Below are positions 1-6,640 of a stretch of 6,640 bases of DNA, piece after piece. The notes under the pieces are model-generated. The model saw only the letters and a list, made by a program, of their open reading frames with translations. It had not been told where the DNA came from and searched no databases. How positions within the stretch are numbered: position 1 is the first letter of the stretch; each line of letters starts with the position of its first letter. Source of the DNA: a virus; the IMG/VR virus record IMGVR_UViG_3300025851_000085. One strand, given 5' to 3'. Both the position numbers and the translations under genes were made by a program.

Positions 1-127
1 AGCACAGCAAACGATTAAGAAAACAACAAAACCTGACATTCCGCTATCAACATTTGATAAAGGCGATTTTTTTACAAATTCAGTTGACGCTTTAAGAAAT
101 TCTGACTTGGGACAGATTTTTATAAAT
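1..127. repeat. Left copy of the exact 127-bp terminal direct repeat (identical to 6514-6640)
   Basis: Base-by-base reading gives agcacagcaaacgattaag...gacagatttttataaat at both ends. The repeat lies inside coding sequence of gene I. Confidence 0.95.
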
Positions 128-343
128 TGCTCTCAGCATCGGTCTGATGGTGTTTTTGATTATTGCTTTAACAATGAAAATGGTGATGTTGTTCGCCCTG
201 AAAATGCAGGTTATCAAGTTTTATACAGTTCTGAATGTCACTCTAAACTTATAAGGGGAAAAATAGAATTAGACGTATATTGCAACCCCGTTTCCTACGC
301 AACAAATGAACCTACACAAAAAGAACCTGGCACTGAAATATAA
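2..343 (+). CDS. gI: 3' end of gene I (pI/Zot-like assembly ATPase): periplasmic C-terminal domain, continuing the ORF at 5597..6640 across the circular junction
   Basis: Position 1 equals position 6514, and the codon phase from ATG 5597 puts codon starts at 6515 = 2. That is the same frame as the listed 107..343 ORF. The stop is TAA at 341-343. The joined ORF is 419 codons. Confidence 0.85.
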   Translation, partial: AQQTIKKTTKPDIPLSTFDKGDFFTNSVDALRNSDLGQIFINCSQHRSDGVFDYCFNNENGDVVRPENAGYQVLYSSECHSKLIRGKIELDVYCNPVSYATNEPTQKEPGTEI

Positions 344-550
344 TTCAGATTTTCTTATATAGCGTAGCGAAAACTTCTCGGTTCTATCGTCAACATATTA
401 GCTTGCGATTTCTGGGGAGTTTTTTCTATTTCAGCGAAACTAAAACCTAAAGGGCTGATGAAAGATATTGTTACGACAGTAGTGAAGTTGTTTTACTAAA
501 TCATAGAAATAAAATAAACATCTGCCGTCCTGCAAAACTTCTCTTTTAAA

Positions 551-579
551 AAATACCTTATAGCCGCTATAGGGTATTT
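551..579. other. Hairpin with 13-bp stem and 3-nt loop (aaataccttatag ccg ctatagggtattt)
   Basis: Positions 551-563 pair with 579-567, giving 12 Watson-Crick pairs plus one T:G (558:572). Read on the minus strand, the stem is followed by a T-run. Confidence 0.6.
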
Positions 580-614
580 ATAACAGCCATAAGATATTTA
601 TTTTTAAATTAAGA

Positions 615-642
615 TTGCGTTTTTAAATTAAACTGTTATTGT
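615..642 (+). promoter_or_regulatory. Candidate sigma70-type promoter for the 675-2253 operon
   Basis: TTGCGT (615-620), a 16-nt spacer, then TATTGT (637-642), about 30 nt upstream of ATG 675. The hexamer matches are weak (3/6 and 4/6). Confidence 0.25.
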
Positions 643-674
643 TAACTTAACTTACTAAAAAAAGGTATCAAATT

Positions 675-926
675 ATGAAACCACTAAATGAAAGTCGTGT
701 AATGATTCATCAAATTAATGATTTTGTTTTAGATAGAATCAGAATTATAAAATCAGAAGGGGGTTATGTTGCACACCTCCATATTGATGGAGATATTTTT
801 GTTTTAATAACTCAAAAAAATGAAATTAGAAAATTTAAAACAATTGATGCTGCCTTTAATGTTTTACGTGTTTATTGTGAAAGCCAGTGTGTTCCTTTTG
901 AAGTCAGACGTTCTTTAGCCGCCTAG
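675..926 (+). CDS. Hypothetical 83-aa soluble protein, first gene of the replication-module operon
   Basis: ORF with AAGG 9 nt upstream of the ATG. It is packed 9 nt from the next ORF. No signal peptide or transmembrane segment, and no family recognised by eye. Confidence 0.6.
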   Translation: MKPLNESRVMIHQINDFVLDRIRIIKSEGGYVAHLHIDGDIFVLITQKNEIRKFKTIDAAFNVLRVYCESQCVPFEVRRSLAA

Positions 927-935
927 GGGGTTATT

Positions 936-1136
936 ATGATTGATACAGCTTATGTTCTTATGTTTAACAATAGGTTTTTCAGAAAGTTTGGAAAATCAAA
1001 AAGGGTGCAAACTGCTTGGAGCTTAGCAGGAGCGGAATTGTTTTTAAGTACAGATGATGCTTTTGATGTTCAAATTAAATTAGAAGCTTTAGGAAAGAAA
1101 AACTTTCTAGTTAAAACGGTTCGTTTAGACGTTTAA
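936..1136 (+). CDS. Hypothetical 66-aa basic protein
   Basis: ORF with a strong SD (GGGGG, 5 nt spacer). It sits tightly between the 675 ORF and gene II (10-nt gaps). No family recognised. Confidence 0.6.
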   Translation: MIDTAYVLMFNNRFFRKFGKSKRVQTAWSLAGAELFLSTDDAFDVQIKLEALGKKNFLVKTVRLDV

Positions 1137-1146
1137 AGGGTGAAAA

Positions 1147-2253
1147 ATGAAAAATCAAACATTATCTGATGGGTATTTTTTCGACTGGCTTTCAATGTCA
1201 CAATTGCACCCAGAAGCCAATTTACCCATTGTTGCCTCTAGGCTTAAAACTGACACATGCTTAAAGACAGGGGAGGTTATACTTTATAAAGTTCCTATGG
1301 TTCATGAGGGTAGTTATTCAACGTCTATTGAAGTTAAATGTGATGGTAATCGCATTACCGTTAAGGGCAATCCATCACGATTTAATAGGGCTGATAATCT
1401 TTTTGGTTATTCTAATCTAGAAGATTGTGTTTCGGTTTATAATAAAATCTTAACTTCCTTGGATTTACCACCATTTACAGAAACAACAAAAATTGACAAT
1501 GTTTGGAATTTTAAATCTAATTGTTTTAATCAAATGCCAAACGGTGCAATTGTATTACAAGTTCACGTAACCAAAAATTACTTTGTTGGTGAGGGCAATG
1601 TTAAAAATTTCATTCGTTCTTTAGGTTCTTATGCTTACCGCTCAAAATTACCTATGATTTACCCAAATGGTTGCACTATTGATTGGAGCGCAGGAAGTAG
1701 GACGCTTTATATAAAACTCTACTGCAAATATACTTCCATGCTTAAAGAGAGAAAAAAGCTAGTAAGCCGCTATACTGAAGCTGAGATGGAGTATTATGAT
1801 AGGGTTATGCAGTATTGCTTAGAAAATGGTATTGCACGTTTAGAGTATGAATTTAAAAGTCAGTTTTTAGCTACAAGAAATTTAAGGTTTTACGGGGTTG
1901 GTGATATGAACGATTTATTAAAGTTTAGATTTGTAGAAGATAAGTTAGAAAAAATGGAAAATATTGTGACCGATTACACCTCTATAGCTGATGAATTATT
2001 ATGTACGGGTATAGTAAAAACTCGTCAATCTGCCAACTCAACTCAGTCTTATTTTTTCATGTGGTTACATGGTCAAGACATTAGAAAAGCCATAACTAAA
2101 AGTAATTTTTACGTACATCGTAACCGTTTATTATTACTTGGTTATGATATTTGTGACCAAATTAATGTTTCAGCTATGCCTATTCGCGTTAAAAATACCT
2201 CAATTCTTTCTATTTCTGAGGCGATAGTTCCAGATTGGTATTATGTTGCTTAA
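1147..2253 (+). CDS. gII: Replication initiation (nicking) protein, phage gene II / CRI family
   Basis: 368-aa ORF with SD AAGGGTGA. By eye it aligns with recalled M13 pII motifs: VKGNPSRFNRADNLFG with ASPAKVLQGHNVFG, GIARLEYEFKSQFL with GLVRFEARIKTRYL, and the C-terminal VPDWYY with RPDWYN. Confidence 0.85.
   Translation: MKNQTLSDGYFFDWLSMSQLHPEANLPIVASRLKTDTCLKTGEVILYKVPMVHEGSYSTSIEVKCDGNRITVKGNPSRFNRADNLFGYSNLEDCVSVYNKILTSLDLPPFTETTKIDNVWNFKSNCFNQMPNGAIVLQVHVTKNYFVGEGNVKNFIRSLGSYAYRSKLPMIYPNGCTIDWSAGSRTLYIKLYCKYTSMLKERKKLVSRYTEAEMEYYDRVMQYCLENGIARLEYEFKSQFLATRNLRFYGVGDMNDLLKFRFVEDKLEKMENIVTDYTSIADELLCTGIVKTRQSANSTQSYFFMWLHGQDIRKAITKSNFYVHRNRLLLLGYDICDQINVSAMPIRVKNTSILSISEAIVPDWYYVA
1906..2253 (+). 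CDS. Possible nested in-frame gene X-like product (C-terminal 115 aa of the initiator)
   Basis: The in-frame ATG at 1906 (GVGD-MNDLL) aligns by eye with the M13 pX start (EGDS-MNIYD). The resulting length (115 aa) is close to pX (111 aa). The SD is poor (GGGG 8 nt upstream, or GGTG too close). Confidence 0.35.
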   Translation: MNDLLKFRFVEDKLEKMENIVTDYTSIADELLCTGIVKTRQSANSTQSYFFMWLHGQDIRKAITKSNFYVHRNRLLLLGYDICDQINVSAMPIRVKNTSILSISEAIVPDWYYVA

Positions 2254-2282
2254 AGAATGCGGTAGTTGTTACACCGCATTCT
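2254..2282. terminator. Hairpin between the convergent gene II and minus-strand genes (10-bp perfect stem, 9-nt loop)
   Basis: agaatgcggt (2254-2263) pairs with accgcattct (2273-2282). On the minus strand it is followed by a U-rich CUUUAAG. On the plus strand there is no U-tract. It overlaps the minus-strand stop codon at 2281-2283. Confidence 0.45.
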
Positions 2283-2421
2283 AGTCCTGAGTACGGGACT
2301 CGGTGTCAATTTCAACTTCACCCCCCACAATAAAAGTTACCAACTCGTTCAGGGTAATATCGAGGCTTATCGCTAGCTTTTCAAGACCGTTTTGGGTCTT
2401 TTCGGTTATCTTGATAATCAT
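2281..2421 (-). CDS. 46-aa ribbon-helix-helix-like small DNA-binding protein (putative regulator)
   Basis: Hand translation gives MIIKITEKTQNGLEKLAISLDITLNELVTFIVGGEVEIDTESRTQD, ending in TAG. The SD is AAAGGA with an 8-nt spacer. The pattern is strand-helix-turn-helix, as in CopG/Arc-type proteins. It falls below the ORF-track size cutoff. Confidence 0.55.
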   Translation of the reverse strand: MIIKITEKTQNGLEKLAISLDITLNELVTFIVGGEVEIDTESRTQD

Positions 2422-2554
2422 TGTACATATCCTTTAGTACGTCCGCAGTCGAGATTAACTTACCCCTTTCTGCTGAAATTTCAAGCGCTAGAATCATAAT
2501 TTTTTCAGCAACATCTTCGTAACATCTTATAGTTTTTGTTTTCATGCTTGACAT
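2381..2554 (-). CDS. 57-aa (or 54-aa from ATG 2545) ribbon-helix-helix-like small DNA-binding protein (putative repressor)
   Basis: Hand translation gives MSSMKTKTIRCYEDVAEKIMILALEISAERGKLISTADVLKDMYNDYQDNRKDPKRS, ending in TGA at 2381-2383. AAGG lies 10 nt upstream of the second ATG (2545). The layout is RHH-like, with a G-K-L-I-S-T turn and helix cap. It is divergent from gene V. Confidence 0.55.
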   Translation of the reverse strand: MSSMKTKTIRCYEDVAEKIMILALEISAERGKLISTADVLKDMYNDYQDNRKDPKRS

Positions 2555-2642
2555 ACCTTAATTTATTTTCTAGTGTATACACCGTATACAGTGTTTTAAC
2601 TTATTAGCTGTTTTTTAATTTAATTACTTTTTAGGTGTTCTT
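2555..2642. promoter_or_regulatory. Divergent control region between the minus-strand regulator genes and the gene V to gene I operon, with an operator-like palindrome
   Basis: Perfect palindrome TGTATAC-acc-GTATACA at 2574-2590, which amounts to two GTATAC hexamers 9 bp apart. A consensus -35 TTGACA lies at 2548-2553 on the + strand, with a poor -10 (TAGTGT) 17 nt downstream. The AT-rich tract 2611-2630 has several TAATTT/TTTAAT -10-like hexamers. Confidence 0.5.
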
Positions 2643-2948
2643 ATGAAAATTTTAGTCGTTGGTTCTCGTTATTGTGTTGGTAATAAAAAAGCAGGTGGTT
2701 CTTTTGAGTTTAGCCAAGTATTTGCCGCTTCTCCCATAAATAATTTCCAGTCTGAAAACTTTAGTGTTGTATCGTCCGCAGGTTGTGAACCTGTAGAATT
2801 AAATTGCACTAAAGAAGTAGTAAATCAATTACAAGGGATTTCCCTACCCCGTGAAGTTGAATTTATAGTAACAAATGAGCTAAGAAATGGACAACTTGTT
2901 CCTGTTCTTGAGTCTGTTGATACTTCAAAAATGAGCAAGGTTGCATAA
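2643..2948 (+). CDS. gV: Probable ssDNA-binding protein (gene V-like)
   Basis: 101-aa ORF with SD AGGTG (5 nt spacer), in the position of gene V ahead of the coat genes. The N-terminal segment GNKKAGGSFEFSQVF resembles the recalled Pf3 SSB GTSAKGNPYTFQEGF and the M13 gVp SRQGKPYSLNEQ segment. Confidence 0.6.
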   Translation: MKILVVGSRYCVGNKKAGGSFEFSQVFAASPINNFQSENFSVVSSAGCEPVELNCTKEVVNQLQGISLPREVEFIVTNELRNGQLVPVLESVDTSKMSKVA

Positions 2949-3061
2949 TGACTGAAGTAACCCTAAGCGCTGAACAATTTGACTTTCTTGTCGAGATTGT
3001 AGCCTTGGGGCTTATGCTTATTTCTTTTTATTCTGGTATCAAATTAGGTTATTCAAAATGA
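2948..3061 (+). CDS. 37-aa small hydrophobic protein (pVII/pIX-like minor virion protein candidate)
   Basis: MTEVTLSAEQFDFLVEIVALGLMLISFYSGIKLGYSK. The start overlaps the gene V stop (TAATG at 2946-2950). AAGG lies 7 nt upstream. It has one hydrophobic helix. Not in the ORF track. Confidence 0.55.
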   Translation: MTEVTLSAEQFDFLVEIVALGLMLISFYSGIKLGYSK

Positions 3062-3180
3062 TGTTATCTCCATATTTATCAGAATTATTAAACACTGAAC
3101 TGGGGCAAGCTATTGCCGTTTCTGTTTATGTTTTTGCTTTTATTTCTCTTGGTTATTTAACCATGATGAAAAAGGATTAG
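3058..3180 (+). CDS. 40-aa small hydrophobic protein (pVII/pIX-like minor virion protein candidate)
   Basis: MMLSPYLSELLNTELGQAIAVSVYVFAFISLGYLTMMKKD. The start overlaps the previous stop (ATGA at 3058-3061). It has one hydrophobic helix and a basic tail. Not in the ORF track. Confidence 0.55.
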   Translation: MMLSPYLSELLNTELGQAIAVSVYVFAFISLGYLTMMKKD

Positions 3181-3184
3181 CCCT

Positions 3185-3310
3185 ATGGTTGATCCTGTCA
3201 TTTCCTCCTTAATGGGTAGCTGTTTTTTAATCTGGCTTACTGGTTTTGGAATAGGAAAAATCTGGTCTTTTGTCGAGACCATTTACAAAAAAGCTACTGG
3301 TACTCATTAG
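3185..3310 (+). CDS. 41-aa small hydrophobic protein of unknown role
   Basis: MVDPVISSLMGSCFLIWLTGFGIGKIWSFVETIYKKATGTH. SD AAGGA with an 8-nt spacer. It has one hydrophobic helix and a basic C-terminus. Not in the ORF track. Confidence 0.5.
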   Translation: MVDPVISSLMGSCFLIWLTGFGIGKIWSFVETIYKKATGTH

Positions 3311-3354
3311 CTTTTAACTTTTAACTTACTGCGGTGACGCACGAGGATTTTTAC

Positions 3355-3588
3355 ATGAATAAGCTACAAATGTTTGTTGGTTCTGCTATTGCTACTGGTT
3401 CAATGGCTGTTATGGGTGTGGCTAATGCCGCTTTAGATGGTACTGCTGTTACTGCTCTTGAGACTGAGGTTTTAGCCGATGTTGCAACTGCGTCTGGTTC
3501 TGGCTTTACCGTTTTTACAGTCGTAATTGCAACGTCTGTTGGTTTTGCATTATTAAGCAAATTTATTAATAAAGGCGCTAACGGTTAA
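3355..3588 (+). CDS. gVIII: Major coat protein precursor (pVIII-like), 77 aa
   Basis: ATG 3355 has SD GAGGA with a 7-nt spacer. The signal peptide is MNKLQMFVGSAIATGSMAVMGVANA, with an A-x-A cleavage motif. The predicted ~52-aa mature protein has an acidic N-terminus, a hydrophobic core and a basic C-terminus (KFINKGANG). The track start (GTG 3334) is in the same frame but lacks an SD. Confidence 0.85.
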   Translation: MNKLQMFVGSAIATGSMAVMGVANAALDGTAVTALETEVLADVATASGSGFTVFTVVIATSVGFALLSKFINKGANG

Positions 3589-3612
3589 TTTTAAACCTTA
3601 GTTCTTTAGTGG

Positions 3613-3650
3613 TCGGTGGTGGGGGCGCTTGTCGTCCCCCCATTGACCGA
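3613..3650 (+). terminator. GC-rich imperfect hairpin downstream of the coat gene (terminator and/or origin element)
   Basis: tcggt (3613-3617) pairs with accga (3646-3650), and tggggg (3620-3625) pairs with ccccca (3637-3642), with an internal loop between them. It is a strong GC island in an AT-rich genome. Ff phages carry a strong terminator at this position. There is no clean U-tract after the stem. Confidence 0.5.
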
Positions 3651-3678
3651 TAATGAATTATGATTTTAAGGTAATATC

Positions 3679-5256
3679 ATGTACAAACTAGCCATCTTTC
3701 TTTTTTTCCTTTTTATTTCATCTTCAACTTTTGCCGTAACTTTTAAGCCGATAGGTAAAGCCAAATATTTTCCTCCCGTTCCTTATTCTTCAGCCGCTAT
3801 GAATACTGGTAAAATTCGTGGTGCCGTTACTATTGGCAATGCCTTTGCTATCGCTAAAATTAAACCGATGTCTGCTTTAGGTGTCGCTAAACAATTAGCT
3901 AAACGTCACCCTTTCACCTTAGCCGCTATGTTGGCATATGGTTATTACGAAGATGACATTGGGCAATGGATGGCATCACCACAGACCGATAACTTATTAA
4001 CCAAATCACCAAAAATCGAACAAATAGACGGTGTAACTGCTGTTGATAATATCGGTTACGATTATTTGGTTGGTGGTTCACATACTGAGCTTGATGTTGA
4101 TTCACTTTGTAAAAGTGTATTTCCTGAAACTGACCTACGTAGAAATGTTTCGGGTGCTTGGGAAACACTTTCTGTTGATGATACGGCAAAAAGTTACGGT
4201 GCTACCTGTACTATGGATAGATGGGACAATTGGGGTGGTCCACATTATGTTCAAACTGAACACCCTAGAATAATGATTGCTTATACAGATACTATGGTAG
4301 TTAGAAGTTGCCCTCCTGATGGTTACGCTTCTTATATAATACCCATTACAGAGGAAGATGGAACTATAGGTGCCTGTACCTCACACGAAGCACAAGAGGC
4401 AACAAAACCACAAATTTTACCAATGGATACTGCTGCTGATAATATGGGCGATAGTGTCATGGATACAATGCAACAAACTGACCCTGCAACACAATCACAG
4501 GGTGATACATGGGCTCCTTATGTAGACCCTTCAACGGGTAATGTCGAACCAGAATTTATTTCTTCATATAACGTCCCTGATGTTTCCCCAGAATTCAATG
4601 AAATGCTTAAAAGTGTTGCTAGTGGTCAAGCTCAAACTGCTGACCCTTTAGCCGCTCATTATGTTGACCCTGCAATGCTTGGAGCTACTCAAACCGCTGT
4701 TACTCAAGCTATGAATGATGCACCATTTATCGACCCTACAACTAGCACAATCGTTGAACCAACAACCTCCACGGAAGGAGCCGCTACACCTGAAACTATT
4801 CCTACTGGCGCAAGTGATTCTCCAATAAATATCACTATTGAAATGCCAGAAGATGACACGATTTCACAAACTGAATATGAAGCATCAAACGCGGCATTTT
4901 TTGACCAATTCGCGCAAGCTTCTGCTGATTCTCAAGCTAATGTTGATTTGAATATTGAGGAAATGAAAACTCAAGATTCTGATTTTATAGATAGCCTTAC
5001 ACCTGACATTATCGACGCTTCGGGGATACCTGATTTTCCATCATTAACGGGTCTTTGGTCTATTGGTGGTGGTTCTTGTGTTGCTTATACAACGGATTCA
5101 TCAATAGCAGGAAACACACGCACAATTACTTATGACAAACATTGTCCGACTTACAACAATGTTGTTCATCCTTTATTGGTTTGGTTTTTATATATCTCCA
5201 CAGCTTTATATATTATCCATTTAGCTGGGCGTACTTTTAAATCAACTGTTAGTTAA
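3679..5256 (+). CDS. Minor coat / host adsorption protein (pIII-like), 525 aa
   Basis: It occupies the position between gene VIII and gene VI. The N-terminal signal peptide is MYKLAIFLFFLFISSSTFA. The N-terminal domain contains Cys residues, followed by an acidic T/P/Q/D-rich linker (about aa 236-395). The C-terminus has a hydrophobic anchor (LLVWFLYISTALYIIHL) and a short basic tail. No sequence family recognised. Confidence 0.75.
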   Translation: MYKLAIFLFFLFISSSTFAVTFKPIGKAKYFPPVPYSSAAMNTGKIRGAVTIGNAFAIAKIKPMSALGVAKQLAKRHPFTLAAMLAYGYYEDDIGQWMASPQTDNLLTKSPKIEQIDGVTAVDNIGYDYLVGGSHTELDVDSLCKSVFPETDLRRNVSGAWETLSVDDTAKSYGATCTMDRWDNWGGPHYVQTEHPRIMIAYTDTMVVRSCPPDGYASYIIPITEEDGTIGACTSHEAQEATKPQILPMDTAADNMGDSVMDTMQQTDPATQSQGDTWAPYVDPSTGNVEPEFISSYNVPDVSPEFNEMLKSVASGQAQTADPLAAHYVDPAMLGATQTAVTQAMNDAPFIDPTTSTIVEPTTSTEGAATPETIPTGASDSPINITIEMPEDDTISQTEYEASNAAFFDQFAQASADSQANVDLNIEEMKTQDSDFIDSLTPDIIDASGIPDFPSLTGLWSIGGGSCVAYTTDSSIAGNTRTITYDKHCPTYNNVVHPLLVWFLYISTALYIIHLAGRTFKSTVS

Positions 5257-5266
5257 GGCGTAAATT

Positions 5267-5587
5267 ATGGGAATTATCGTAACTTTTTTTACAACAATGT
5301 TCGGGGGTATGACTTCCCTCATTGGTTTGTTTCTAGCTCGTAAAGCTACCTTTTCATTAGCTTATATTGTTATCTATATTGCTTTAACGGGGCTTTTCAT
5401 GGCTTCTATTACTTCGTTGATTGGTGGGCTATCAAGTTCTGCTCCTTCAAACGGTTTATTGCAAGCAGGTTTATCTTTATTACCATCTAATTCGGGTCAG
5501 TGTATCGGTGCTATTTCAGCCGCGCATATAGCCTCATATTTATTCGTAATGAAAAACAAATTACTTAACTTAAAAGTAAAATCTTAG
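5267..5587 (+). CDS. gVI: Minor coat protein pVI homologue, 106 aa
   Basis: Very hydrophobic ORF between the pIII-like gene and gene I. AGLSLLPSNSGQCIGAISAAHIASYLFVMKNKLL aligns by eye with recalled M13 pVI GVQLILPSNALPCFYVILSVKAAIFIFDVKQKIV. SD AAGG. Confidence 0.8.
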   Translation: MGIIVTFFTTMFGGMTSLIGLFLARKATFSLAYIVIYIALTGLFMASITSLIGGLSSSAPSNGLLQAGLSLLPSNSGQCIGAISAAHIASYLFVMKNKLLNLKVKS

Positions 5588-5596
5588 GGGTTTATT

Positions 5597-6640
5597 ATGG
5601 CGGCATTTTTTGAGGGTTCGAGGGGATCGGGAAAATCTAAATATTCGGTTGAACGTATGCAAAACCGTTTAAAATCTGGTCGCGCTGTTGCAACTAATCT
5701 CGATTTATTTCTTGATAAATTACTTCCTGACAACCCTAAAGCGCATTATGTTCGCCTACCTGATTTTCCGCGCTCAAGTGATTTATTGTTACTTGATAAT
5801 GCCTATCCTGAACTTGACCATGACGACCCAAAAACATACAACGATGATAAGTTTGGTTGTGTTGTCCTTGATGAACTTTTAACTTCTTTTAACTCTAGAA
5901 CTTGGAACGACCCAGACAGGGTAGAGGTTGTAAATTGGATAGTTCAAAGTCGAAAATATGGGTGGGATTTATGTTTAATTGGTCAATCTATTGATGGTGT
6001 TGATAAGCAAATAAAAGAAACTGTAATTGATGAACTCTATTCTTTTCGTAGTTCTCAAAATATGTTCGGGGGTGTTTTTTGGAATTTATTTTTCAAACCT
6101 TGGTGGACTAAAGTTGTCCCTAAATTTCATATTTGCACACGTTATGATGGAAGAAAAAAAGATAAAAACCAGAAGATAGGGGGAGACCATTTTAGACGTA
6201 ACGATTTACACGATTGTTATAAAACTGGTCAACAATTTAAAAAAGACGTTCGTTTAATTGCTCCAGAAAAGGGTAATAAAATGATAGAAATTGATGATCG
6301 GGCGAGTTATTCCGTTTTGCATCCTCATTATTTTGGAGTTCCAAAAGTTGAAAAAGCAAGCGCTGAAAGTGAAACGGTAAAACCAGAAATTCCAGAAATT
6401 CCAGAAGAATTAAAAAAACGAGCTAAGGTAATAGAGGCTCAAACCTCACCGTATTTTTTGCTAGCGCTTCTCGTTGTTTTTGGTGGTCTTTACTATTTCA
6501 TTAATGATTGGTCAGCACAGCAAACGATTAAGAAAACAACAAAACCTGACATTCCGCTATCAACATTTGATAAAGGCGATTTTTTTACAAATTCAGTTGA
6601 CGCTTTAAGAAATTCTGACTTGGGACAGATTTTTATAAAT
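5597..6640 (+). CDS. gI: Gene I assembly ATPase (pI / Zot family), 5' 348 codons; the ORF is open to the window end and continues at 2..343
   Basis: Not in the ORF track because there is no stop within the window. SD AGGGG with a 6-nt spacer. Walker A is GSRGSGKS and Walker B is GCVVLDE. Segments match recalled M13 pI by eye: ATNLDL, RLPDFPRSSDLL with RIPDKPSISDLL, FNSRTWNDPDR with FNTRSWNDKER, and SRKYGWDLCLIGQSIDGVDKQ with ARKLGWDIIFLVQDLSIVDKQ. A transmembrane segment YFLLALLVVFGGLYYFI lies at about 6452-6502. Confidence 0.92.
   Translation, partial: MAAFFEGSRGSGKSKYSVERMQNRLKSGRAVATNLDLFLDKLLPDNPKAHYVRLPDFPRSSDLLLLDNAYPELDHDDPKTYNDDKFGCVVLDELLTSFNSRTWNDPDRVEVVNWIVQSRKYGWDLCLIGQSIDGVDKQIKETVIDELYSFRSSQNMFGGVFWNLFFKPWWTKVVPKFHICTRYDGRKKDKNQKIGGDHFRRNDLHDCYKTGQQFKKDVRLIAPEKGNKMIEIDDRASYSVLHPHYFGVPKVEKASAESETVKPEIPEIPEELKKRAKVIEAQTSPYFLLALLVVFGGLYYFINDWSAQQTIKKTTKPDIPLSTFDKGDFFTNSVDALRNSDLGQIFIN
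6383..6409 (+). repeat. 9-bp tandem repeat (ccagaaatt x2 plus ccagaagaa) encoding PEI-PEI-PEE within gene I
   Basis: Direct reading of 6383-6409. The repeat is in frame, in the cytoplasmic linker upstream of the pI transmembrane segment. Confidence 0.9.
6514..6640. repeat. Right copy of the exact 127-bp terminal direct repeat (identical to 1-127)
   Basis: Base-by-base identity with 1-127. Confidence 0.95.

Follow-up and report, generated by a model that had tools for sequence, protein, structure and literature searches.

The window, meaning the whole 6,640-nt stretch of DNA analysed here (IMG/VR record IMGVR_UViG_3300025851_000085; all coordinates are window positions), is very probably a complete circular genome of 6,513 bp from an uncultured ssDNA phage of the filamentous (M13-like) inovirus type, order Tubulavirales, which the assembler cut inside gene I, leaving a k-mer overlap as a 127-bp repeat. 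The phage is known here from sequence alone. Within a familiar group of viruses it is a new member of an ordinary kind. Its genome is a mosaic in which a structural module (about 2971 to 413) is joined to a module of Ff type for replication and regulation (about 414-2970).

A circular genome cut inside gene I

Positions 1-127 and 6514-6640 are identical, as the preliminary description of this DNA had noted, and 127 nt is the longest exact terminal overlap; the unit is therefore 6513 bp. The left copy (1..127) lies inside gene I, and the right copy (6514..6640) is its duplicate outside the 6513-bp genome. The reading frame that begins with the ATG at 5597 is open to 6640 and, once the sequence is circularised, runs on in the same frame as far as a stop at 343, which yields the 419-codon pI that had been predicted.

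Does the repeat belong to the virus or to the assembly? The identical 6513-bp unit, with 0 mismatches, is present in two JGI contigs from other samples, one starting at window position 1921, inside gII (L003, sample 3300008251), and the other at 3943, inside gIII (L004, sample 3300008222), each with a 123-bp terminal overlap. A 2250-bp contig from a further sample (L005, 3300008250) runs from 4637 across the 6513/1 junction, again with 0 mismatches, and the junction is uninterrupted in all three. In a sister genome, L050 (Logan SRR13106154), the unit measures 6507 bp and the terminal overlap 30 bp; among related circular contigs the overlaps measure 127, 123, 119, 77, 55 and 30 nt. Such lengths are typical of assembler k or k-1. 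Because the same unit is cut elsewhere, inside other genes, and L005 spans the junction, the window is an arbitrarily linearised circle with ends set by the assembler k, which bears out the earlier proposal.

A de Bruijn assembler would also yield a cycle from a rolling-circle concatemer, or from tandem prophages arrayed head to tail as they are in CTXphi, and from sequence alone a circle looks the same as a perfect tandem repeat. One relative is indeed integrated in a Colwellia metagenome-assembled genome (MAG), but the Xer-like recombinase found near it is absent from the present genome, as are an integrase and a dif-like site. Host flanks are missing from every contig (four samples), and the cut points (1, 1921 and 3943) vary by assembly, fall inside genes and share no common att junction. 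An array of this kind is thus very unlikely, and even so it would derive from, and produce, the same 6513-bp circle.

Gene content and distance from described phages

The circle (36% G+C) encodes a G2P/CRI initiator, an RstB-like ssDNA-binding protein, three tiny membrane ORFs, a 77-aa coat precursor, a 525-aa pIII, pVI and a pI/Zot ATPase. Pfam and PHROG searches support this inventory with matches to PF05707 (Zot), PF05144 and PF05155 (G2P), phrog_1675, phrog_702, phrog_929 and phrog_1944, and the membrane topologies predicted from hydropathy are consistent with structural proteins. The ORFs are intact and under purifying selection relative to L050, with, for example, 36 synonymous and 2 nonsynonymous codon changes in gI, 9 and 0 in gVI, and 7 and 1 in gV. 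The preliminary description had recognised a filamentous-phage gene set but missed two conserved minus-strand genes (2281-2545). The set that it called minimal but complete is an inovirus set, complete in the sense of the secretin-less type, because no gIV secretin was found in the genome.

The replication genes lie on the plus strand. Gene II (1147..2253), the 368-aa rolling-circle initiator of the G2P/CRI family, matches PF05144 (E=1.4e-7), PF05155 (E=4.4e-11) and phrog_702 (E=2.5e-66); a candidate in-frame gene X start is the internal ATG at codon 254 (nt 1906), with a Shine-Dalgarno-like GGGG/GGTG. Upstream are orf83 (675..926), which is conserved (9 synonymous against 2 nonsynonymous changes in L050; 51% amino acid identity in L009) but has no Pfam or PHROG family and no assigned function, and orf66 (936..1136), a phage protein without assigned function (phrog_37694, E=1.5e-10; phrog_7129, E=1.1e-9). 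The gene V analogue (2643..2948) encodes the 101-aa RstB-like ssDNA-binding protein and matches phrog_929 (E=1.6e-9); its match to PF07459 (E=0.0014) is below the family cutoff.

The structural genes follow on the same strand. Two small single-span membrane proteins, orf37 (2948..3061; hydrophobic residues 10-33; 6 synonymous and 1 nonsynonymous change) and orf40 (3058..3180; hydrophobic residues 15-37; intact in L050), are placed like pVII or pIX. A third small membrane protein, orf41 (3185..3310), is highly conserved, with 5 synonymous and 0 nonsynonymous changes in L050 and homologues in L001 and L002. Gene VIII (3355..3588) was assigned as the major coat precursor from hydropathy, position and weak family matches (PF19199, E=0.087; phrog_1646, E=0.036), PF19199 being carried by the same-position coat proteins of L008 and L011. 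In its product, a signal-like N-terminus that ends in ANA is followed by an acidic segment, then by a hydrophobic core and a basic tail; the protein is 100% identical in L050 and 80-90% identical in L001, L002, L006 and L016. A G+C-rich stem-loop (3610..3649, plus strand) lies 3' of this gene and is a candidate attenuating terminator, like that of Ff: the RNA fold of 3580-3685 has an energy of -38.4 kcal/mol (z=-4.5; 0 of 200 shuffles as stable), and 3589-3678 is 100% identical in L050.

Gene III (3679..5256), for the adsorption or minor coat protein, encodes an N-terminal signal (hydrophobic 1-23) and a C-terminal anchor (495-517); pIII is 80% identical in L050, 86% in L002 and 63% in the Colwellia MAG prophage. 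Gene VI (5267..5587) encodes a 106-aa minor coat protein (phrog_1944, E=2.7e-14; DUF5455, E=0.0011). The pI/Zot-type assembly ATPase is encoded by 5597..6640 and 1..343 (frame 2, stop codon 341-343, with 128-343 beyond the repeat). It matches PF05707 (E=4.4e-19), phrog_1675 (E=1.6e-48) and, in its C-terminal Zot region, phrog_1041, and has a Walker A motif (GSRGSGKS), one hydrophobic segment (residues 284-305) and a candidate internal pXI start (ATG) at codon 229.

Might the inovirus genes instead have been acquired by a small plasmid of the rolling-circle type or by a defective satellite? In favour are the small genome, its lack of a secretin and the existence of inovirus satellites such as RS1 and TLC. 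However, all the virion and assembly genes, from the three small membrane ORFs through pVIII, pIII and pVI to pI, are present, intact and under strong purifying selection against the sister genome, and PLSDB plasmids gave no nucleotide match. Many autonomous inoviruses also lack a secretin, among them CTXphi, fs2 and the Vibrio cyclitrophicus phages. An autonomous phage is therefore the preferred reading, and a plasmid or satellite origin is highly improbable.

The core proteins had been judged only distantly related to those of described phages, and the comparisons agree: blastn against GenBank phages, even in its distant mode, gave no nucleotide match, the best matches among described phages are 38% identical for Rep and about 31% over the N-terminal half for pI, and pIII has no match among GenBank phages. 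A near-identical described phage was looked for by genome comparison and none was found in GenBank. The lineage suggested to be undescribed is so in the formal sense, but it has close uncultured relatives in IMG/VR and among SRA assemblies, and one more is the prophage of a Colwellia MAG.

The closest described phages are the Vibrio cyclitrophicus inoviruses 10N.239.311.*_PE002 (e.g., PQ189297.1, 6398 bp). They have a G2P/CRI-family Rep (38% amino acid identity over 98% of the protein), a similar size, the same order of Rep, RstB-like protein, small coat proteins, major coat, pIII, pVI and pI, no secretin, and likewise a marine gammaproteobacterial host. By contrast, there is no nucleotide similarity and pIII is unmatched; their Rep directly abuts RstB and an HTH protein encoded upstream of Rep serves as their regulator, whereas here a 389-nt region with the minus-strand ORFs R1 and R2 separates gII from gV, and orf83 and orf66 are two extra ORFs 5' of gII.

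Ff (M13/f1/fd), If1 and IKe (genera Inovirus and Lineavirus) share the Rep family PF05144 and PF05155 (34% amino acid identity for If1), the N-terminal ATPase half of pI (about 30-32% identical), the overall operon logic, the stem-loop 3' of gVIII and the candidate in-frame gX and gXI starts. They differ in having the gIV secretin and another host, the C-terminal half of pI, pIII and pVIII show no relationship or one at the limit of detection, and the window genome has a third small membrane ORF and a minus-strand cassette that Ff lacks. The CTXphi, fs2 and VFJ type of Vibrio inovirus resembles the window genome in lacking a secretin and in having an RstB-like ssDNA-binding protein (phrog_929) and a Zot-type pI that includes the C-terminal Zot region (31% identity for fs2 and VFJ). 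Unlike in that type, Rep is G2P rather than RstA/Rep_trans and is not preceded by an RstR-type HTH repressor, and both a dif-like attP and toxin cargo are absent.

Relatives, host and proposed life cycle

L050 is 89% identical in nucleotides over the whole genome and has an identical architecture. The structural module is common to IMG/VR UViG_3300025738_000066 and 3300031523_000114 and to the prophage of Colwellia sp. MAG DT_20 (JABSOY010000009.1), at 75-79% nucleotide identity (the range found for L001, L002 and L006), with pI 86-87%, pVI 89-91% and pVIII 81-90% identical. It is shared by inoviruses of the Colwelliaceae. The replication module is a different matter: where replication genes are on the contig (L002 and L006; the Rep gene is not included on IMG/VR contig L001), they encode Rep_trans and a canonical RstB, and both IMG/VR contig L002 and the Colwellia MAG prophage have this CTXphi-type module instead of G2P. 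The DT_20 prophage, which lies adjacent to the Xer-like recombinase, also carries an HTH repressor.

The four best genome matches for pI are all Colwelliaceae: Colwellia MAG DT_20 (86%; integrated in a 268-kb contig), Thalassotalea PLHSN55 (72%), MEBiC 14330 (61%) and Colwellia E2M01 (59%). Judging by these hosts of relatives, the host is most likely a cold-marine Colwellia bacterium, in keeping with the 63% identity of pIII to that of the Colwellia prophage and with the 36% G+C; neither a CRISPR spacer match nor an integrated copy of the window genome was found. Since there is no integrase and no dif-like site, the phage probably persists as an episome in chronic infection. Colwellia psychrerythraea has been reported to lack dif/Xer (PMC2731167).

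On the model of Ff and CTXphi, pIII would attach to a receptor of a Colwelliaceae cell, and the ssDNA would be made into a double-stranded replicative form. Nicking of the plus strand by the G2P-type initiator would then start rolling-circle replication, the best candidate nick site being the conserved stem-loop directly 3' of gII. Progeny ssDNA would be coated by the RstB-like gV protein, and the pI/Zot ATPase would assemble orf37, orf40, orf41, pVIII, pIII and pVI around it. Because the phage encodes no secretin, the virion would be extruded via that of the host.

Non-coding elements and the minus-strand cassette

Two adjacent stem-loops (2254..2300; hairpin 1, 2254-2282; hairpin 2, 2283-2300) lie between the convergent gII and R2. 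The fold (-15.8 kcal/mol, z=-5.7) was matched in stability by 0 of 200 shuffles and is the same in all six relatives (6/6). Stem 1 switches between ATGCGGT/ACCGCAT and AAGGGAGG/CCTCCCTT among the relatives, and GT(A/T)ACACC, which covers the loop and the first part of this stem's 3' arm, is invariant. The element is a candidate plus-strand origin (nick site) or bidirectional terminator, and the hairpins might be no more than terminators.

Just 3' of gene I is a conserved non-coding element (355..420, plus strand), about 80-84% identical in nucleotides in L001, L006, L009 and L010 and conserved in relatives with either Rep type. In the window it forms a stem (AAAACTTCTCGG / CTGGGGAGTTTT) followed by a T-run, and it may be a packaging signal, a minus-strand origin or a terminator. 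The intergenic region 344-674 is 97% identical in L050.

Are R1 and R2 genes? R2 (2281..2421, minus strand) is a 46-aa ORF and R1 (2381..2545, minus strand) a 54-aa ORF of no assigned function, overlapping R2 by 41 nt. Both are very short and neither has a Pfam match, so that chance ORFs in a structured intergenic region, for example an origin, have to be considered. In R2, nonsynonymous changes against L050 (16) exceed synonymous ones (9), and DNA-level constraint could mimic protein conservation because hairpin 2 overlaps its 3' end. Yet both ORFs and their overlap stay open in six genomes whose Reps are 52-73% identical, with proteins 46-60% identical among those genomes (L008-L012: 46-60% for R2, 47-60% for R1). 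R1 changes mainly at third codon positions: against L050 there are 8 synonymous and 3 nonsynonymous changes (3/0/8 differences by codon position), and across relatives position 3 differs 247 times and position 2 126 times. It also matches phrog_2503 (E=4e-4). AF2 models built from one to three sequences give compact, confident folds (pLDDT 87 for R2 and 89 for R1). Chance ORFs are therefore unlikely, and R1 and R2 are better read as genes.

R1 is predicted to form a helical hairpin with a basic tail, and its model had no fold match in the structure search. R2 is a putative DNA-binding regulator with a predicted beta-alpha-alpha, ribbon-helix-helix-like fold; its best superposition is on the PutA RHH domain (2rbf_A; rmsd 0.8 A over 33 columns), which at E=2.6 is not significant, and hhalign gives 32% probability for CopG. 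Operator-like repeats (AGT-GTATAC-ACC-GTATAC-AGTGT, 2572..2594) lie between the divergent R1 and gV. Promoter-like sites are no commoner in the genome than in shuffled sequence. The repeats hold the only two GTATAC sites of the whole genome, 9 bp apart, and the relatives have 9-bp-phased GTATAC at the same place (GTTAAC in L010); the surrounding 2546-2642 is 100% identical in L050. It is probable that R1/R2 and these palindromes form a regulatory switch, in which the divergent cassette upstream of gV represses or tunes the gV-to-gI operon.

A circular inovirus genome and its gene content

Does the sequence represent a complete circular molecule? The window (6640 nt, 36% G+C) has identical termini at 1-127 and 6514-6640; this is the longest terminal match and gives a unit of 6513 bp. 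On the circularised sequence, the gI open reading frame starts with the ATG at 5597, crosses the junction and stops at 343, so that the 419 codons described previously are confirmed. The exact pI protein is also present on other JGI contigs. The 6513-bp unit is found with 0 mismatches in two contigs from samples 3300008251 and 3300008222, each 6636 bp long and with ends that overlap by 123 nt, which are cut at window positions 1921 (within gII) and 3943 (within gIII), respectively. In a third sample, 3300008250, a fragment of 2250 bp runs from 4637 uninterrupted over the 6513/1 junction. A single identical sequence in three samples with three arbitrary intragenic cuts argues for a circular molecule; this result is not expected of a linear genome, or of a prophage bounded by fixed ends.

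Related circular contigs have terminal overlaps of 123, 119, 77, 55, and 30 nt. Overlaps of such lengths are typical of k or k-1 in MEGAHIT, SPAdes, and Logan assemblies, and the 127-nt repeat thus reflects the overlap of the assembler rather than a terminal repeat of biological origin. The preliminary description had proposed both a complete 6513-bp circle with 127-bp redundancy and an assembly origin of the repeat. The first is borne out by the terminal identity and the identical units in independent assemblies, and the second by the different cut points of these contigs and the k-like lengths of the overlaps.

Eleven plus-strand open reading frames cover the circle with short gaps, and the only minus-strand genes are two small ones, R1 and R2, located between gII and gV. 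Genes for replication, single-stranded DNA (ssDNA) binding, coat, adsorption, and assembly follow in that order on one strand, the arrangement expected of a small (5-15 kb) circular inovirus genome. Upstream of gII lie orf83 and orf66, plus-strand conserved or phage ORFs of unassigned function. gII (1147-2253, plus strand) encodes a rolling-circle initiator (Rep) of the G2P/CRI type (phrog_702, E=2.5e-66), which scores above the cutoffs of PF05144 (31.9 bits vs 21.7) and PF05155 (43.6 vs 25). The gV analogue (2643-2948, plus strand) encodes a 101-aa RstB-like ssDNA-binding protein (phrog_929, E=1.6e-9). It is separated from gVIII by three small plus-strand ORFs of 37-41 aa with one membrane span each.

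Inovirus major coat proteins are small and alpha-helical (~50 aa when mature), with a signal peptide, an acidic N-terminus, a hydrophobic core, and a basic C-terminus. The 77-aa gVIII product fits in gene position and sequence features: its signal-like N-terminus precedes an acidic stretch, and a hydrophobic core leads to a basic tail. It is a probable major coat precursor with weak family matches (PF19199, E=0.087; phrog_1646, E=0.036); the proteins at the same position in two relatives, L008 and L011, carry PF19199. The sole return from Rfam was a match to the mir-991 precursor inside gVIII (3465-3549; 26.8 bits, E=0.038), which is far below the gathering score of 100 and was dismissed as noise. 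gIII (3679-5256, plus strand) encodes pIII, whose 525 aa include a signal at the N-terminus and an anchor at the C-terminus. It is followed by gVI (5267-5587, plus strand) for a pVI-type minor coat protein (phrog_1944, E=2.7e-14) and by the junction-spanning gI (5597 to 343, plus strand) for the pI/Zot assembly ATPase (PF05707, E=4.4e-19, 69 bits vs a cutoff of 20.3; phrog_1675, E=1.6e-48). The Walker A motif of pI, GSRGSGKS, occupies residues 7-14, and there is a single hydrophobic segment at 284-305. The family matches of gI, gII, gV, and gVI, together with the gene order, uphold the inovirus gene set claimed earlier and support that interpretation overall.

No secretin was found in the genome among the ORFs or by Pfam and PHROG family matches, and none of its ORFs encodes an integrase. 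CTXphi uses a host secretin; by analogy, the phage would have to borrow the secretin of its host. The window is the complete circular genome of a secretin-less and integrase-less inovirus.

A sister genome (L050, from the Logan assembly of SRR13106154; unit of 6507 bp, terminal overlap of 30 nt) shares the gene order of the window and is 89% identical to it at the nucleotide level. Codon-wise, synonymous and nonsynonymous changes between the two number 36 and 2 in gI, 9 and 0 in gVI, 3 and 0 in gVIII, 7 and 1 in gV, 5 and 0 in orf41, 6 and 1 in orf37, and 9 and 2 in orf83. These counts indicate strong purifying selection and argue that the ORFs are real. Divergence is concentrated in gII (79% nucleotide identity), R2 (72%), orf66 (83%), and gIII (81%, with 113 synonymous and 105 nonsynonymous changes); the remainder is 91-100% identical. 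The location of these hotspots in replication-specificity and host-recognition genes suggests recombination or diversifying selection there.

Relatives, probable host, and exchange of modules

Neither the GenBank phages (megablast and blastn) nor the PLSDB plasmids contain a nucleotide match to the window; thus, the genome is not that of a known phage or plasmid. Among described phages, Rep is 38% identical to that of Vibrio cyclitrophicus inoviruses and 34% to that of If1, and the N-terminal half of pI is ~31% identical to its counterparts in fs2, VFJ, and Ff, so the core proteins are as distant from Ff as they had appeared by eye. A tblastn search with pIII gave no match in GenBank phages. 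The proposal of an undescribed lineage holds formally, probably at the genus level, but many uncultured relatives exist and the phage is of a well-understood kind.

The phage belongs to neither of two well-known groups. The Ff group (genus Inovirus) is marked by the secretin pIV and by 11 proteins that are all closely related, whereas the window lacks a secretin and is only ~30-34% identical in Rep and in the N-terminal half of pI. CTXphi-like phages have an RstA (Rep_trans) initiator and a divergent RstR repressor, whereas the Rep of the window is of the G2P/CRI type; the same test was able to detect Rep_trans, as seen in the IMG/VR contig L002 and in L006, the prophage of the Colwellia metagenome-assembled genome (MAG) DT_20. 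Furthermore, CTXphi-like phages carry a dif-like attP for XerCD integration, in contrast to the window. When the genome was scanned with the 28-nt gamma-proteobacterial dif, from which the dif of Colwelliaceae, if there is one, may differ, no site had 8 mismatches or fewer. There is no XerC arm in the genome, and the sole near-XerD arm (1 mismatch) sits inside gI. With nothing credible in the scan, CTXphi-style dif integration was rejected. The phage probably stays episomal, a lifestyle that fits the reported absence of dif/Xer from Colwellia psychrerythraea (PMC2731167).

Which host does the phage infect? The closest pI (86% identity) belongs to the prophage of Colwellia sp. MAG DT_20, which is integrated in a contig of 268 kb, and the pIII of this prophage is 63% identical. 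Further pI homologues are found in Thalassotalea sp. PLHSN55 (72%, in a 5.3-kb contig at 33,563x coverage), Colwelliaceae MEBiC 14330 (61%), and Colwellia sp. E2M01 (59%). Judging from these relatives rather than from a direct link, the host is most likely Colwellia or a close relative within the Colwelliaceae. The PLHSN55 contig (NZ_JBPDIH010000020.1, 5345 bp) comes from an isolate genome assembly, and 33,563x is its stated coverage. Such depth implies that the culture contained virions or a replicative form of very high copy number, which makes PLHSN55 a possible culturable model for the clade. Colwellia sp. E2M01 likewise carries a related contig at high copy number.

Nucleotide homology to the IMG/VR contigs L001 and L002 and to the Colwellia prophage is confined to window positions 2971 to 413, at 75-79% identity. 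L002 and the Colwellia prophage, which have replication genes on the contig, encode Rep_trans (RstA-type) initiators and canonical RstB; the prophage (JABSOY010000009.1) also has an HTH repressor and an Xer-like recombinase. The Ff-type replication and regulation module of the window is also present in five relatives (L008-L012), where it accompanies more distant structural genes. With Rep as the query, IMG/VR gave no relative; this collection thus contains the structural module but not the replication module. The restriction of homology to the structural module, together with the Rep_trans initiators of L002 and the prophage, argues that the window is a recombinant of a Colwelliaceae structural chassis and an Ff-type replication and regulation module. 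It is a clear natural case of module exchange, in which the replication module that accompanies one structural chassis can be of the Ff type (G2P) or of the CTXphi type (Rep_trans).

The DT_20 prophage (L006/L013; region at about 4700-16100 of L006) has a CTXphi-like module of divergent HTH repressor, Rep_trans initiator, and RstB. In L006, ~4 kb of extra ORFs after pI are followed by the Xer-like tyrosine recombinase (123 bits vs the XerC cutoff of 335), which adjoins rph. Between the genes for RstB and the small coat proteins, L002 (1486-1746) and L001 (450-698) have a gene that the window lacks; its 82-86-aa product resembles a zinc ribbon, with cysteine pairs of the form CxC...CPxC.

No description of a Colwellia inovirus or filamentous phage was found in the literature. 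The genome provides a clean and complete reference for a marine Colwelliaceae inovirus clade without a described or cultured member, and does not challenge the current understanding of inoviruses. Colwellia is a key psychrophile of sea ice, the deep sea, and oil plumes, and filamentous phages often alter biofilm formation, motility, and cold adaptation of their hosts; the genome is thus a useful handle for ecology. It is also a possible phage-display or vector scaffold for cold-adapted hosts. Points of added interest are the likely Colwellia host, the module swap, and the unreported R1/R2 cassette.

Structured elements and a putative R1/R2 switch

Non-coding stretches at 2546-2642, 3311-3354, and 3589-3678 are 100% identical between the window and the sister genome, and identity is 97% across the large intergenic region (344-674). 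This exceeds the conservation of synonymous sites in the neighbouring genes, which argues that these stretches hold functional DNA or RNA elements. Over its full length, 344-674 does not exceed shuffled sequence in predicted structure (z=0.21), and the only notable structures are local hairpins.

Immediately 3' of the gII stop are two stem-loops (2254-2300, z=-5.7), whose fold is the same in all six relatives. Stem 1 has changed on both arms in a compensatory manner across relatives, from ATGCGGT/ACCGCAT to AAGGGAGG/CCTCCCTT, whereas all retain GT(A/T)ACACC, a motif at about 2270-2277 that covers the loop and the beginning of the 3' arm. A conserved motif atop a co-varying stem beside a rolling-circle initiator gene suggests a nick site, and the hairpin after gII is a candidate for that of G2P. 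Alternatively, the stem-loops might act as a bidirectional terminator between the convergent genes gII and R2. None of the hairpins described in this section was called by a terminator scan, because they lack a canonical T-run. In relatives, the conserved SGSPD at the C-terminus of R2 is encoded within hairpin 2 and shows no synonymous variation.

The hairpin after gVIII (3610-3649, z=-4.5) is strong and G+C-rich. In Ff, a terminator after gVIII sets the ratio of coat to assembly gene expression, and the hairpin in the window parallels it. An element of ~60 nt after gI (355-420) shows ~80% conservation in relatives irrespective of their Rep type, which places it in the structural module. Conservation extends to the sequence core AGCAAATTAGCTTGCGAT but not to the predicted secondary structure, and the element may serve as a packaging signal, a minus-strand origin, or a terminator.

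The preliminary description did not note the overlapping minus-strand ORFs R1 (2545 to 2381, 54 aa) and R2 (2421 to 2281, 46 aa), which lie within the 389 nt that separate gII from gV. Both ORFs and their overlap are kept, at 46-60% amino acid identity, in every genome that has the same Rep as the window (L008-L012; Reps 52-73% identical). Variation in R1 is mostly at third codon positions, and R1 matches phrog_2503 (E=4e-4). An AlphaFold2 (AF2) model of R1 is a two-helix hairpin (helices 4-27 and 33-49, no strand, pLDDT 89), for which a fold search gave no match. Assignment of R1 to the ribbon-helix-helix (RHH) proteins was rejected, given the lack of a strand, the lack of a PDB fold or sequence match, and an hhalign probability of 6% against CopG.

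RHH repressors (CopG/Arc/MetJ) bind phased repeats as dimers and have an N-terminal beta strand ahead of two helices. The AF2 model of R2 is beta-alpha-alpha (strand 2-6, helices 7-20 and 24-32, pLDDT 87). It superimposes on the RHH domain of PutA (2rbf_A) at 0.8 A over 33 columns, with a TM score of 0.68-0.70, at a Foldseek E of 2.6 that is not significant; hhalign against CopG gave a probability of 32%. R2 has no match in Pfam, and profile searches of PDB sequences with R1 and R2 returned only noise.

The only two GTATAC sites of the genome lie 9 bp apart at 2572-2594, between R1 and gV, and relatives have 9-bp-phased GTATAC, or GTTAAC in L010, in the corresponding place. R1 and R2 may form a small repressor cassette, divergent from the gV-to-gI operon, that acts on the GTATAC repeats. 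A scan for sigma-70 promoters found 20 sites vs 22 expected, which is not above chance, and no promoter is claimed; a TTGACA read by hand at 2548 has a poor -10 element.

A broader reading is possible but rather doubtful: that this is the first complete genome of a Colwellia filamentous phage, strictly episomal and secretin-less in a host reported to lack dif/Xer, in which a switch composed of the R1 helical hairpin and an RHH-like R2 would control the virion operon through 9-bp-phased GTATAC operators, and in which G2P would nick at the stem-loop after gII. The switch would lie between the replication gene and gV, and not upstream as in CTXphi-type phages. If this reading holds, the two-gene switch would be previously undescribed.

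The position of the cassette relative to Rep may vary. A distant relative on an Enterobacterales MAG contig (L017) has a weak R1 homologue at 2147-2305 (36% identity, E=0.007), which is located upstream of and divergent from Rep (2440-3531), not downstream.
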